DNA from: an uncultured Gemmatimonadaceae bacterium
GTDB lineage: Bacteria; Gemmatimonadota; Gemmatimonadetes; Gemmatimonadales; Gemmatimonadaceae
Direction of reading: 5' to 3'
Length of the DNA stretch: 64,000 bases
Assembly: GCA_963817955.1 (NCBI GenBank)
Contig: CAWFQK010000002.1
Span: forward strand, 1,088,001 to 1,152,000
Position 1 is the stretch's first letter. Every line of letters begins with the position of its first letter. Shown here in pieces: positions 29,916-35,405 of this stretch. The notes under the pieces were generated by a model. It searched no databases, was not told where the DNA came from, and saw only the letters and a list, made by a program, of their open reading frames with translations. The translations under genes and the position numbers were made by a program.

Positions 29916-30722
29916 TCATTCCGGCGGTGTGGACGATTCTGGCCGCCGCAGATCGGGGTTCGCCGGGCGGCGCATTTGCGCCTCTTCCTCATCAGCTTCG
30001 GCATCGGCCTGCTCCTCCTCGTGCCGTTCGCGCGCCAGCGCTTCCGAGCGCTCGCGACGATAGCGCTCGTACCAGTCGCGCGTGATCTCACCGGCAAGCT
30101 CACGGTTGCCGAGCCCGAACGACAGCGACAGCGCCAGCGCGATCGCTCCAAACAAAATGGCGAATGCTGTCGTCACGATGTCCGTCGCGATGCCCAGCTG
30201 CTGCAACGCCATGAAGATCGCGAGCAGGATGACGCCACCACGGCCCAATCGGGCGAGCGAACGCCCGCCGTGCACCGCACCCGCCGATGCGGCGATCAAT
30301 CCCCCGACGAATCCCCCGAGCACGATGCCGACGAGAATGATCACGATCGCCGCGATCACGCTCGGGATGTAGCTCACCAGCGTCGACACCACGTTTGCCA
30401 GCGAGTCGAGTCCGAGCGAGTTCGACGCGAGCAGGATCACGGTGAACATCACCAACCAGAACACCAGGTTGGCGAGCACACGCGTCGGATTCACGTGCGT
30501 CCCGGAGCGCTCCACCGCCTGAGTAACGCCGCCGCGCTCGAGCAGGTAATTCAGCCGAATCCGACGCAGCCCCCGCTCGACCCATCTCTCGAGCAGCTTC
30601 GCGAGCAGATAGCCGGCGAAGAGAATGACCAGCGCGCCGAGCAAGGCCGGAAGCGTCTGTCCGAACACCCGCTGGAAGCTCGTTTGCAGGCGATCGCTAA
30701 AATCGGTCGTGTCTTGTTGCAT
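29916..30722 (-). CDS. Conserved TM-helix protein (CmpX / mechanosensitive channel-associated)
   Basis: Two repeats of LP.L..A.VIL..G; LQQLGIA..IVTTAF...A.ALSFGLG. Confidence 0.85.
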   Translation of the reverse strand: MQQDTTDFSDRLQTSFQRVFGQTLPALLGALVILFAGYLLAKLLERWVERGLRRIRLNYLLERGGVTQAVERSGTHVNPTRVLANLVFWLVMFTVILLASNSLGLDSLANVVSTLVSYIPSVIAAIVIILVGIVLGGFVGGLIAASAGAVHGGRSLARLGRGGVILLAIFMALQQLGIATDIVTTAFAILFGAIALALSLSFGLGNRELAGEITRDWYERYRRERSEALARERHEEEQADAEADEEEAQMRRPANPDLRRPESSTPPE

Positions 30723-30904
30723 TGTGGGTGAATCTAAGGAGCTTGCGTCTGTGGCATAGGGTCAAACGGTCAGGCATCTCGTCTCCCGTGTCCCGTTGTC
30801 TGTGTGACCGCAGACGGCGCAACAGCCATTTAACGCAGAGAACTGCAAGAGAACGCAGAGAACTGCAGAGCTATCTGAGGTTATCCGTCAAGGGGAAAAG
30901 GACG

Positions 30905-32203
30905 TCATGCAGTCGCGGGGACGAGGTGCGCGGTGAGGGGTGAGCCGCGGTGTTCGAGCGCGCGGACATAGCGCGCGTCGTCATACGGGATGCTGTCGTG
31001 CCAGCAGCGCCAGAGAATCCGGATCCATTTGAACGCGAGCGTGCGAATGGCGGCGTGATGCGACTTGCCGCGTTGTCGTTGCAGGTGATAGAACGCGCGC
31101 GCCCAGGGGACGTGCGGTAGCGAGTACTGTGCGAACTCATGAAAGGTCTGGCGAAGAAACTTCGAGGTCGCCCAGCGCCAGTGCACCACGCAGCTCTTGC
31201 CGCTGCGCACGGTAATCGGGGCGATCCCTGCGGTTTGCTGCACGTCCGCCGCTGAGGGGTAGCGCGTGCGGTCCGAGCCAAACGCGACCAGGAGCCGCGG
31301 TGCGAAGGCCGCGCCGGCGCCCGGCACTGACTGAAAGATCACTGCATCGGGATGGGCGGCGAACGCCGCGGCGATCCGCTTCTCGAGCGCGACCAGACTC
31401 GGGTGCAGGGCCAGCAACTGGCGGGCGAGCATCTGCGCATGGAGGGCATGGGACTCGATGATGGCCGGGTCGCGCGTCAACGGGGTGGCCGTGGCGATTG
31501 CCTCCAGGCGCGCCGTGATGCCCGACTGGCTGCGGCAATTGTGCGCCGTGTAGAACGTCCGCACCGTCGCGGGGCGCGCGCGCTGCAGGGCTTCCAGCGT
31601 GGGCCACCGCTCCAGAAAGTCGCAGGCCAGGGGCGCACTGAGGTCGGTGCCGGCCACGGTGAGGGCGAGGGGGAAATAGGCCTTGAGCACGGCCTGCAAC
31701 TGCTGCGTGAGCCGGGTCCGCATGTCCACGAGCGTGCGCCGGATCTGCACGAGGTAGTTGAGCGAGCGCGTGGCGGCATCCTCCGGCATCCAGGGGTGCA
31801 ACTGGGCCTGATGGTGCGTCAGCAAGGCGAGCAGGAGCCGCGCATCCGGCACGTCGTCCTTGGCGCCGTTGGGGGAGAACACTTGGCGGAAGCGGCACAG
31901 GCTGCGCGGATTGACGGGATAGAGCACGAGGAACGGCGCCTCGAGGAGCGCGTGGACAATCGGGCCCCGCGAGGTCTCCAGGGCGATGCCGATCGGTTGG
32001 CCCCCGAAGCGGTGCGCGAGCGTGGCGAACCAGGCCGCGAGCGCCTCAGGGGTGTGCGCGAGGCGGACGGTCTCGACGGTCGCCGAGTCGGCGGCCTGCA
32101 GCGCGATCTCGTGGTGCTGGTCGCCCCAGTCGAGGCCGATCCGGGCCGCGAGTGGGATCAGTGGGGTCAGCGGAGTGGTATCCATTAGAGGAGTGGCATC
32201 CAT
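30905..32203 (-). CDS. IS110 DEDD recombinase A (~432 aa)
   Basis: IGLDWG (D), ALETS (E), KDDVPDA (D,D), VPGAG, TVRSGK (catalytic Ser), KWIRILWRCW. Confidence 0.95.
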   Translation of the reverse strand: MDATPLMDTTPLTPLIPLAARIGLDWGDQHHEIALQAADSATVETVRLAHTPEALAAWFATLAHRFGGQPIGIALETSRGPIVHALLEAPFLVLYPVNPRSLCRFRQVFSPNGAKDDVPDARLLLALLTHHQAQLHPWMPEDAATRSLNYLVQIRRTLVDMRTRLTQQLQAVLKAYFPLALTVAGTDLSAPLACDFLERWPTLEALQRARPATVRTFYTAHNCRSQSGITARLEAIATATPLTRDPAIIESHALHAQMLARQLLALHPSLVALEKRIAAAFAAHPDAVIFQSVPGAGAAFAPRLLVAFGSDRTRYPSAADVQQTAGIAPITVRSGKSCVVHWRWATSKFLRQTFHEFAQYSLPHVPWARAFYHLQRQRGKSHHAAIRTLAFKWIRILWRCWHDSIPYDDARYVRALEHRGSPLTAHLVPATA

Positions 32204-32279
32204 GAGACGCTCCGGACAAAGGAAAGGGTCGCAGCACGGGTCGCCGGGGCCACGCACGCTTCGGCACTCGAAAGTCTTA

Positions 32280-32540
32280 TAGCAGTCGTCGAGGGGTCGT
32301 CTCTCGCAGTCGTCTCTCGCAGTCGTCTGCCCTGACCCGCTTGACACACGTCAGTATCTGAGGATTCGTTTCACCGAAGCGCATCATCCGGCTCGTCGGG
32401 CTCTGCAGATTCGTCGCACGAAAGACCGTAGGCAGTCGTAGCCGGGTGGTGCGTGTTCCCTCTTCTGCCTACACCGCAGAAGCAGTTTCAACTGGCGCGG
32501 AAGACGTGCGACCCGCACCCCTCACTCGGCGCAGCGGAAG
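32280..32540 (-). ncRNA. Putative bridge RNA of IS110-A (ends approximate)
   Basis: Target loop closed by GCACCACCCGGCT/AGCCGGATGATGC, with left guide ACGGTCTT (32429-22), inner hairpin TTCGT-gcg-ACGAA and right guide CTGCAGAG (32408-01); donor-matching CCTCAGATA (32363-55). Confidence 0.78.
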
Positions 32541-32625
32541 AACTAAAGATAGGACCGTGAAGGATTGTCTCGCCTGGAAGTCTTGGCTGATGCCGTCGTG
32601 ACGCTCCGATGGTATCGCCCAGGTC

Positions 32626-32685
32626 GGGATCATCAACGATATCGGCGGAATGCTTGTGGACTCGGCAATCACGGTTCATTCCACC
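32626..32685 (+). pseudogene. Short remnant resembling the N-terminus of a GxxExxY protein
   Basis: GIINDIGGMLVDSAITVHST, truncated before the GPGxxExxY motif and lying inside the inverted-repeat unit. Confidence 0.45.
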
Positions 32686-32837
32686 AATACGCGCTTCCCT
32701 CTTCCGTACGCTTACAGTTCTCTCCTGCAGTTCTCTCGCAGTTCTCTTGCAGTTCTCTGCGTCCTCTGCGTTAAAAGCTGTTCTATCGGTCACCGAGATC
32801 CTTCGCTTCGCTCAGCAACTGTCTTGAAAGTCAAGGA

Positions 32838-34045
<1,208 letters not shown>

Positions 34046-34140
34046 AGATACAAGGATGACAGACAATTCGCCCACTCATTTCCGCGAAGACCCCCCTCTA
34101 GGGTAGACGCGCCGGTGTCACCGGACCTCCGCGAAGGTCA

Positions 34141-34368
34141 TTAGTTCCTCGTCCCCCGCTTCACGTCAAAGATCACGCTGCGCTTGCACGTGGCGCAGAT
34201 CAACCATTCGCGCCGCCGCGAGTAGCCCAACCCGAATGAACCGCCGCCGATGCTGCGGGCGGTGAGTTGCGTACCATCGCGTGGGCAGACCGCCGCGCCG
34301 CCGCTCGCGTATGCATCGCGAATCGCGCGCTCCTCGACCAGCTCGTACTTCGCTGATTCAGCGGTCAT
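34141..34368 (-). CDS. Small putative zinc-ribbon protein
   Basis: CPRDG...CATC; start overlaps the stop of the upstream dehydrogenase. Confidence 0.7.
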   Translation of the reverse strand: MTAESAKYELVEERAIRDAYASGGAAVCPRDGTQLTARSIGGGSFGLGYSRRREWLICATCKRSVIFDVKRGTRN

Positions 34369-35405
34369 GAGATCCGCACTACGATTTTGCCGAACTGCGC
34401 GCCGCTCTGCAGTCGCTCGAAGGCGGCCCGTCCGTCGTTGAGCTGATACACGCTATCGATCGGGGGCAGCAACCGTCCCCGTCGCAGTTCGCCGACGACC
34501 GCGTCGAAGTCGGCGTCACTGCCCATGGTGGAACCGAGAATCGACCACTGATTCCAGAACAGTCGGCGCACATCGGTTTCGACCATCGGGCCTGACGTGG
34601 CACCACAGGTCACGAGCCGCCCGCGCCGACCTAGCGCGCGCAAGGATTGATTCCAGGTCTCTTTGCCAACGTTGTCCACGACAACATCAACGCCACGTTT
34701 GCCAGTCTGATCGCGAATCGTGCGGGCGACGTCCACCTCGTTCCGATTGAGGCATTCGTCGGCACCAAGTCCCGCGGCGCGACGCAACTTCTCGTCACTG
34801 CTCGACACCGCCCAGACACGGGCGCCGAGCTGTTTGCAGATTTGAAGCGCCGCCAACGCCACGCCCCCGCCAATGCCCCAGATCAGCACGCTCTCGCCCG
34901 CCCGCACACGTGCGCGCGTCACGAGCATGCGCCACGCAGTGAGCGTTGCCAGCGTGAAGGCCGCAGCCTGCTCGGGTGAAACGCTGGCCGGCACGGAACG
35001 GACGTTCACCGCCGGCACCACGATGTACTCGGCCATCGTGCCGGGATAATGCTCGCCGAGGATGCCGAACTGCGGACAGAGCGGTTGCTCACCCTCGAGA
35101 CAATACTCGCAGGTTCGATCACTCAAACCCGGATTGACGACGACGTAGTCGCCGGCCGAAACGTCCGTCACCTCGGCGCCTACCTGGTCGATGACGCCGC
35201 AGGCATCGGCGCCCAGTGTCCACGGCGGCGTGATGGTAACACCGGGCAAACCCGGTAGGACGAACAGGTCGAGATGATTGAGCGCTGCCGCCTTCACGCG
35301 AATGCGCACATCAGTTGGGCGCTGCACTTCGGGCGCGGGAATGTCGTCACGCCACTCGATGCGATCGAGCCCACCGTGAGTGGAGATGGTAAGTGCTTGC
35401 ATCAC
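34365..35405 (-). CDS. Zinc-binding alcohol dehydrogenase / quinone oxidoreductase (MDR)
   Basis: ALNHLD, CEYC...C, WGIGGGV, CGATSG, GSTMG. Confidence 0.93.

Follow-up and report, generated by a model that had tools for sequence, protein, structure and literature searches.

The window analysed here, a 64,000-nucleotide stretch of DNA from an uncultured Gemmatimonadaceae bacterium (GenBank assembly GCA_963817955.1, contig CAWFQK010000002.1, positions 1,088,001 to 1,152,000), carries a whole insertion sequence of the IS110 group at positions 30869–32552. The element proper measures 1682 bp and is bracketed by the dinucleotide CT on the minus strand (AG on the plus strand), the strand on which all of its features lie and in whose orientation they are written below. 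Sequence and comparison with empty sites place the left copy of this core dinucleotide at 32551–32552 and the right copy at 30869–30870, and the boundaries are ambiguous over these 2 nt only (30869/30871 to 32550/32552). Read from left to right, the element consists of a 347-nt non-coding left end (32204–32550) that carries the bridge RNA, a recombinase coding sequence (30905–32203), and a short right end of 36 nt from stop codon to core, a layout that is characteristic of the IS110 group rather than of IS1111. Its two junctions share CT alone, such that the insertion is scarless and shows neither a long target duplication nor long terminal inverted repeats, in keeping with the IS110 family. 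An initial annotation of this DNA had recognised an IS110-family element whose 347-nt upstream non-coding end encodes a bridge RNA, which domain matches and covariation support; it had also proposed that the bridge RNA was non-canonical, with a different donor-loop geometry, which is contradicted by the standard layout of 66 aligned RNAs and by covariation of the right donor guide. Judged from these alignments, the left end encodes a canonical two-loop bridge RNA, and it is the DNA end read by one of its guides that has been altered, leaving a copy that is most likely stranded.

We first consider the insertion site. A DNA search of the 4.5-Mb genome with the element and its flanks returned a full-length match only to the element itself, all other matches being confined to the flanks, and the right-end terminus likewise occurs once; the element is therefore present as a single copy. 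The flanks belong to a host repeat of ~250 bp that is present in at least 40 copies and bears arrays of 10–11-nt units (GCAGAGAACT) at both ends in inverted orientation. DNA search, repeat alignment and tandem-repeat analysis place one decamer-array end of this repeat, the insertion target, at 30807–30868, and the body and other decamer-array end of the same repeat copy at 32553–32800. No Rfam match to the host repeat was obtained within the searched stretch (30000–35000). When the 16-nt right flank was searched in 30 fetched loci, the 29 matches comprised the window itself, one spurious match and 27 uninterrupted repeat copies, which read ...AG|GACCGTGAAGG and define the empty site; in 17 of these 27, CTGCAGAG directly precedes the flank. 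The exact 14-mer CTGCAGAGGACCGT was found 14 times in the genome versus 0 times in the reversed control, each occurrence marking a host-repeat copy with the exact 14-nt target site. Taken together, the empty repeats and the 14-mer counts indicate that excision between the AG/CT cores restores ACGGTC-CT-CTGCAG. The initial annotation had predicted this restored target and had suggested that empty sites be sought in relatives, and the uninterrupted repeats of the bacterium's own genome match its predicted boundaries.

The recombinase is encoded by an open reading frame (ORF) at 30905–32347, within which the ATG at 32203 is the probable start, yielding 432 codons and a stop without frame breaks. 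Across the 480-residue ORF, Pfam matches were obtained to DEDD_Tnp_IS110 (PF01548; E 1e-25, 90.8 bits vs a cut-off of 29, residues 70–226) and to the C-terminal Transposase_20 domain (PF02371; E 1e-12). Residues D25, E76, D117 and D120 are invariant in the clade alignment, with the KxDxxDA motif aligned to ISCro4, and S334-G335 is invariant in 13 clade members and aligned to the ISCro4 SG motif. By homology with D11/E60/D102/D105 of IS621 as described by Hiraizumi et al. 2024 (PMC11208158), we assign the four acidic residues as the catalytic ones. The only solved relatives recovered by sequence were the bridge recombinases ISCro4 (PDB 9t56, E 5e-8) and IS621 (8wt6, E 3e-7), with similarity mainly in the Tnp domain. 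More than 4460 protein homologues were found among 8000 candidates scored, and since the best 120 span 414–472 residues, the length of the recombinase is normal for its clade. This places in context the earlier remark that the protein is longer than recombinase B, the product of an adjoining IS110-family element described below: the difference is real (432 residues vs ~323 from Met69), and ~420–430 residues is the usual size in the clade. A protein search of the bacterium's own genome at E ≤ 0.001 returned the recombinase gene alone, recombinase B being too distant to appear.

We collected relatives from two sets, genome_contigs (307 pattern matches, 293 confirmed, 78 loci kept) and metagenome_contigs (600 pattern matches, 561 confirmed, 80 loci kept), for a total of 158. 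Named records within the clade come from metagenome-assembled genomes (MAGs), among them those of Gemmatimonadota, Acidobacteriota, Nitrospirota and Verrucomicrobiota. The element belongs to a large, ordinary clade that shares a canonical bridge RNA. We also observed an 18-nt tandem duplication at 32172–32207 (2.0 copies, 88% matches) that spans the recombinase start and gives rise to the sequence MDATPL-MDTTPL. As relatives align only from about residue 12–18, the true start may be the second ATG.

The left end can be aligned to Gemmatimonadota relatives by plain BLASTN or MAFFT, and to the whole clade with the use of anchors. For structural analysis, 92 relatives with a complete RNA window were thinned at 85% identity to 66, of which 65 (omitting L084) were aligned with the window RNA. 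In the resulting 66 RNAs, RNAalifold returned four helices with a total of 28 pairs, and compensatory changes occur in 24 of these. Overall, 95.1% of cells pair compared with 77.2% in column shuffles, none of 500 shuffles reached the observed value on any of five measures, and sliding the 3′ partners by 1–3 columns reduced pairing to 29.5–42.7%. From its 5′ side, the RNA comprises a 5′ stem-loop (CTTCTGC/GCAGAAG, 32462–32482; seen in the single sequence and its minimum free energy fold), followed by P1, the outer stem of the target-binding loop (5′ arm 32440–32453, 3′ arm 32380–32393; 13 pairs, 12 with compensatory changes), which closes that loop around an inner hairpin, P2 (32410–32422; 4 pairs, 3 with compensatory changes). 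The donor-binding loop is closed by 11 pairs: P3, its outer stem (5′ arm 32374–32382; 7 pairs, all with compensatory changes), and P4 (5′ arm 32365–32369; 4 pairs, 2 with compensatory changes), whose 3′ arms together occupy 32257–32273 (P4, 32269–32273; P3, 32257–32264) and were placed by covariation and sequence. An inner hairpin of the donor-binding loop (CUGAC...GUCAG, 32332–32354) was seen in single sequences only, in a region that aligns poorly across the clade. On this alignment, the donor loop is standard across the 66 RNAs, with outer stems, a 5′ left donor guide, an inner hairpin and a 3′ right donor guide in that order. A search of Rfam 15 at E ≤ 1 over 30000–35000 returned no match inside the element, the sole hit being a sub-threshold one in the neighbouring element.

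Between the donor inner hairpin and the right donor guide, the window RNA contains an insertion of ~50 nt that includes a perfect 13-nt tandem repeat (32296–32328; 2.5 copies, 100% matches). Most of the 65 relatives lack an insertion at this place; that of L035 is comparably long and those of L110, L114, L116 and others are shorter, and this site of the donor loop seems tolerant of extra RNA. We also considered a link between the repeat unit of the left end and the decamer array of the host repeat, based on an 11-nt identity, and discarded it as within chance, 19 of 300 shuffles reaching 11 nt.

We next examined how the target-binding loop relates to the insertion site. The left target guide, ACGGUCUU (32422–32429; ACGGTCTT in the DNA), has the sense of the left target ACGGTC and the core, matching over 6 nt, a U·G wobble at the core C, and 1 further nt. 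The right target guide, CUGCAGAG (32401–32408; CTGCAGAG in the DNA), is the reverse complement of the core CT and CTGCAG at 8 of 8 positions, and it covaries with the right flank in relatives. The two flank the hairpin TTCGT-GCG-ACGAA just as the initial annotation had noted, and the stem CCGGCT/AGCCGG, in which it had placed them, proves to be the inner part of the covarying 13-pair helix P1. Amongst 84 distinct elements with both flanks available, the longest match of each flank to the element's own RNA averaged 6.1 nt on the left and 6.5 nt on the right, whereas swapping RNAs among elements gave means of 4.7 and 4.6 nt, with maxima of 4.9 and 5.0 nt in 200 permutations; some left-end starts were mis-parsed in this run, which could only weaken the signal. 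This permutation test and the variant donor guides described below agree in showing that guide matches covary with their sites, the outcome on which the initial annotation had staked its reading of the guides. The element also inserted independently at the equivalent position of another repeat copy, where the remnant described below lies, and this event too agrees with the target guides. We had noted the +1 register of the left target guide relative to the hairpin as a possible peculiarity, and set it aside as it is common to 11 of 58 elements.

The donor side of the RNA is where the initial annotation had found a departure from the expected pattern. The left donor guide, CCUCAGAUA (32355–32363; CCTCAGATA in the DNA), matches the left-donor end at 9 of 9 positions (30872–30880) within CCTCAGATAG, the terminus of the right end (30871–30880, placed by sequence and relatives), and as previously noted, this match ends one base short of the core. 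Such a gap is the commonest state in the clade: of 60 parsed elements, 30 leave a single base between the left donor match and the core, 7 have a match that runs to the last left-donor base, 14 have one that takes in the core C, and in 9 it ends further back. The right ends of all relatives terminate in ...TTGAC[AG]-N-CTCAGATG[GT]-CT, with variants, and the corresponding RNAs bear the same-sense CUCAGAUR; in 7 of 8 elements from Gemmatimonadota, an A/G position of the left donor guide changes together with the terminus of the right end, and GATG, GAGG, GAAG, GTTG and GATA variants track between RNA and right end across the clade. The skipped base is itself read elsewhere in the RNA. In 54 of 54 elements with a locatable guide, it is the complement of the nucleotide following the right target guide (T-A in 35, G-C in 13, C-G in 5 and A-T in 1). 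In the window copy this position is the first C (32400) of the target-loop handshake guide CC (32399–32400), which is complementary to the last left-donor G, that of GATAG. The reciprocal handshake, which sets the base following the right donor guide against the last left-target base, shows complementarity in 44 of 59 elements and a wobble in one more.

The right donor guide, which the initial annotation could not find in clean form, is CUAUAAG (32276–32282), a conserved heptamer just 5′ of the P4 3′ arm, followed by the handshake dinucleotide AC (32274–32275). It is the reverse complement of the core and TATAG, the usual right-donor (RD) sequence at the start of the left end, and was identified by clade-wide complementarity with compensatory variants. 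Both ends could be parsed for 60 of the 66 aligned elements. In 57 of these 60, the right donor guide is exactly complementary to core and RD; L156 and L039 differ by a single G·U, and the window copy alone has a real mismatch. Where core or RD differ, the guide differs with them: core CC accompanies CUAUAGG (L126, L127, L141, L151 and L186), core GT accompanies CUAUAAC (L152), and RD TATAT accompanies AUAUAAG (L081). Against its own end, the window guide pairs at 2 of 7 positions, both of them core bases, so that this copy by itself does not display the right-donor complementarity expected of a bridge RNA. The earlier statement therefore holds for the window copy taken alone; the guide is nonetheless present and the DNA site is what has been altered, and it was overlooked because the left terminus of this copy is mutated.

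We then asked what the altered terminus had been. The left terminus of the window copy reads ATCTTTAG (32543–32550), an aberrant RD end in place of the TATAG seen in relatives and in a remnant of this element: the left ends of close relatives start CT-T[AG]TAG in 21 of 21 cases, and the window copy starts CT-ATCTTTAG. All nine of nine pairwise alignments put the window CTT-TAG (positions 5–10) on CTTATAG, with 4 extra bases left over. A DNA search of the genomes of 60 relatives, 30 of them of the same genus, yielded no copy of the element and only matches of at most 80 nt, leaving the remnant in the bacterium's own genome as the sole near-identical terminus for comparison. This remnant, 44 nt of the left end on contig G000:C8 (L201 323–372 minus, approximately G000:C8:4622–4671), sits inside another host-repeat copy at the same target position. 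It starts ACGGTC-CT-TATAG-TTCTTCCGCTGC, with TTCTTCCGC following CT-TATAG, and in full reads ...TTCACGGTC-CT-TATAG-TTCTTCCGCTGCGCCGAGTGAGGGGTACGTGCCGCACGT-CT-CTGCAGTTCTCC..., ~91% identical to the window over 127 nt including flank. Since the remnant begins with the canonical TATAG, the window terminus is the derived one, and by BLASTN the change amounts to a 3-nt insertion and one substitution. An 8-nt terminal deletion of TATAGATG was considered as an alternative and dropped, as the pairwise alignments and the remnant show extra bases and one change. As read from these comparisons, the defect in right-donor pairing lies in the DNA end and not in the RNA.

The remnant is of some interest in its own right. 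Its sequence closes with ...GCACGT-CT-CTGCAG: the rest of the element is lost, a CT from within the left end is fused exactly to the right junction, and the right breakpoint and the element boundary agree to the nucleotide. This has the appearance of a deletion made by the recombinase at a pseudo-site (ACGTCTT is similar to the left target guide ACGGUCUU), and less that of a random one. Elsewhere in the genome (L202 222–252, approximately G000:C4:1573071–1573101), a 28-nt stretch outside the host repeat is identical at 26 of 28 positions to left-end bases 8–35 and is preceded by CT-CA; this is possibly a small remnant of the window element or of a sister element.

The change also touches the predicted promoter of the RNA. 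The right end contains a −35-like hexamer, TTGACG (30886–30891), which is conserved in the right ends of relatives and matches the consensus, and which would face the left end after circularisation. As the initial annotation had observed, TTGACG-16-TATCTT is present across the predicted circle junction; relative to TTGACG-17-TATAGT, the −10 has thereby been changed. A search of the linear locus gave no sigma-70-like site, and no RNA run is listed among the public sequencing runs that match parts of the stretch.

Combining these observations, we consider it very probable that the window element is a bridge-RNA-guided IS110 copy with a canonical RNA and a mutated right-donor end, and that it is stranded. 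In this scheme, the target-binding loop (ACGGUCUU, CUGCAGAG and handshake CC) would specify ACGGTC-CT-CTGCAG within the multicopy genomic repeat, and the donor-binding loop (CCUCAGAUA and CUAUAAG) would specify a circle junction of the form ...CCTCAGATAG-CT-TATAG.... The element presumably inserted at the site named by its guides, and the right-donor site at the start of its left end changed from TATAG to ATCTTTAG, so that the right donor guide would mismatch its own end. The recombinase gene and RNA look intact, and the RNA, if transcribed and bound by the recombinase, would be left in a copy that cannot efficiently excise or transpose. In a cell-free study, excision by IS621 was reported to rely on recognition of the donor arms (Xie et al., preprint 10.64898/2026.08.31.748434); together with the clade-wide complementarity of guide and site, this dependence leads us to expect poor or no excision and transposition here. 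That there is a single full copy although 14 exact targets stand empty is consistent with immobility.

Several observations pull in the other direction. The right end, the ORF and each of the four guides have remained intact, and the repeat units of the two internal tandem duplications are identical or almost identical, such that the copy shows no visible decay. The count of 57 of 60 is partly circular, as left-end starts were detected by core+T[AG]TA[GT], and only the variant cores and ends are independent. The terminus alignments beat all shuffles in only 3 of 9 cases (L109, 25 vs a maximum of 17; L031, 27 vs 17; L035, 21 vs 20). The donor-loop handshake A is not complementary to the last left-target C in this element, nor is its counterpart in 10 others. 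Parts of the stretch occur in four public metagenome runs of soil or sediment, all belonging to one study, in unitigs of only ~150–220 nt; these show no junction-spanning joint, circle junction or excision joint, and they leave 32543–32552 uncovered. Lastly, the predicted circle junction (30871–30876 joined to 32547–32552) forms a perfect 12-bp palindrome, AGATAG|CTATCT (AGATAGCTATCT), where the ancestral TATAG end would limit the palindrome at the junction to AGCT. Such symmetry is unexpected for random mutation, and the change could have arisen while the two ends were joined, before insertion.

These points bear on the other explanations. The first reading of this DNA, a subfamily with a different donor-loop geometry, an offset left donor guide and no conventional right donor guide, drew on the window copy alone, where the left donor guide does end one base before the core and the RNA holds no complement to CT-ATCTTTAG, and on the distant similarity of the protein to IS621 (E 3e-7, in the C-terminal domain only). 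We regard it as very improbable, given that the donor loop has a standard layout with covarying outer stems, CUAUAAG covaries with core and RD across the clade, and the remnant on G000:C8 records an earlier, conventional TATAG end. Moreover, the offset itself is ordinary: the handshake guide reads the skipped base in 54 of 54 elements, as described for IS621, whose left donor guide also falls short of the whole core (A123-C130, PMC11208158). Also very improbable in our view is an assembly or sequencing error at the terminus, with a real element that starts CT-TATAG. It is true that no independent read or contig covers 32543–32552; one public contig end falls exactly at 30868, and the contig nearest to the left terminus stops at 32542. 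A 3-nt insertion with a substitution in non-homopolymer sequence is, however, atypical of consensus errors, and apart from the terminus, both element and flanks keep the same order of sequence as relatives and other copies of the repeat.

That the copy is still mobile, having transposed with its altered terminus by means of the left donor guide alone or a relaxed reading of the right-donor site, and is single owing to recent arrival, strikes us as unlikely but deserves more weight. The intact ORF, RNA and right end would all fit, as would the lack of any DNA-similar copy in the 60 relatives' genomes searched, and the 12-bp palindrome suggests a templated change made with right and left ends adjacent. 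In addition, half-matched substrates recombine in IS621; that result, however, concerns the dispensable target arms and not the donor arms (10.64898/2026.08.31.748434). In 59 relatives, the right donor guide and its site have been conserved and vary together, implying that selection maintains a pairing that here extends to 2 of 7 positions, and a mobile element facing 14 exact empty targets has produced no second full copy, the sole other trace of it in the genome having a canonical end. A variant of this idea, which we hold to be distinctly improbable, takes the terminus as a templated rewrite in the circle rather than decay: both donor halves would then present the sequence read by the left donor guide, and the element would have inserted afterwards. 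Were this so, the clade could use a symmetric donor recognition independent of the right donor guide, resembling one between two donor-binding loops (DBL-DBL-like). Of the same low standing is a related thought, that a stranded recombinase aimed at no fewer than 14 identical sites drives rearrangements of the host repeat. We retain the stranded copy with a canonical RNA as our interpretation.

The guide logic and handshake pairing invoked here are those established for IS621 of E. coli, itself of the IS110 group (Hiraizumi et al. 2024, PMC11208158; Durrant et al. 2024, PMC11208160), and the resemblance is extensive. As IS621 has been described, both elements have DEDD RuvC-like and Tnp domains, a left end much longer than the right, a CT core without other duplication, and a right-end −35 that faces the left end across the circle junction. 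Both target a genomic repeat, and in both the RNA consists of a 5′ hairpin followed by a target loop and a donor loop. Each of these loops opens with a guide that reads in the same sense as the left half, and its 3′ guide complements core and right half and is followed by handshake bases. The two elements also differ. The window protein is ~100 residues longer (432 vs 328), with similarity detectable in the C-terminal domain only (E 3e-7). In its clade, the left target guide usually covers the first core base only, the left donor guide often stops 1 nt short of the core, and the RD end TATAG and right donor guide are almost invariant, the right-donor site being mutated in the window copy. By sequence, the best solved relative is the ISCro4 transposase (PDB 9t56, E 5e-8), whose SG-containing Tnp motif aligns, the overall protein similarity being distant.

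Other members of the family offer looser parallels. ISPpu9 and ISPpu10 of Pseudomonas putida, also of the IS110 family, likewise insert in multicopy intergenic repeats (PMC12288879, 10.64898/2026.03.19.712850); going by the published descriptions, those are repetitive extragenic palindromic (REP) or other conserved intergenic repeats, whereas the repeat here is ~250 bp long with 10-nt arrays and is not REP. Elements of the IS1111 group, with their seekRNA (Siddiquee et al. 2024, PMC11187229), share the DEDD family and RNA-guided target choice. They are described as carrying the RNA in a long right end, with subterminal inverted repeats of 7–17 bp (Durrant et al. 2024, PMC11208160), whereas the window element has its RNA in the left end and a right end of 36 nt. 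The main text of Durrant et al. 2024 contains neither 'Gemmatimon' nor 'Acidobacter'.

The finding adds no new kind of bridge RNA, and its value is modest and comparative. The logic of IS621, four guides together with a handshake base (54 of 54), recurs in a distantly related clade, which supports the generality of the mechanism, and the clade supplies ~60 well-aligned natural combinations of guide, target and donor. The window copy is, in effect, a natural right-donor-site mutant beside a canonical-ended remnant in the same genome, and possibly a simple test of the role of right-donor pairing in excision.

Two further sets of observations concern relatives and neighbours of the element. Several long-read Acidobacteriota/Terriglobia MAGs (L043–L053, L060–L067, L068–L075 and others) carry 8–11 copies each of one clade member, inserted at similar sequences that match the guides; in the MAG of L043–L053, the right flanks resemble conserved coding sequence and not an intergenic repeat. 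Within the window, the second IS110-family element, that of recombinase B (~32806–34100, minus strand; ORF 32838–34013, ~323 residues from Met69), adjoins the outer end of the same host-repeat copy. Comparison with the copy on G000:C8 shows that the shared sequence of the host repeat, ...CTTCGCTTCGCTCAG, stops where the right end of the recombinase B element begins. The upstream end of this neighbour gave the sub-threshold Rfam match mentioned above, to sX15 at 33859–34016 on the plus strand (35.4 bits vs a gathering score of 55, E 0.0028).

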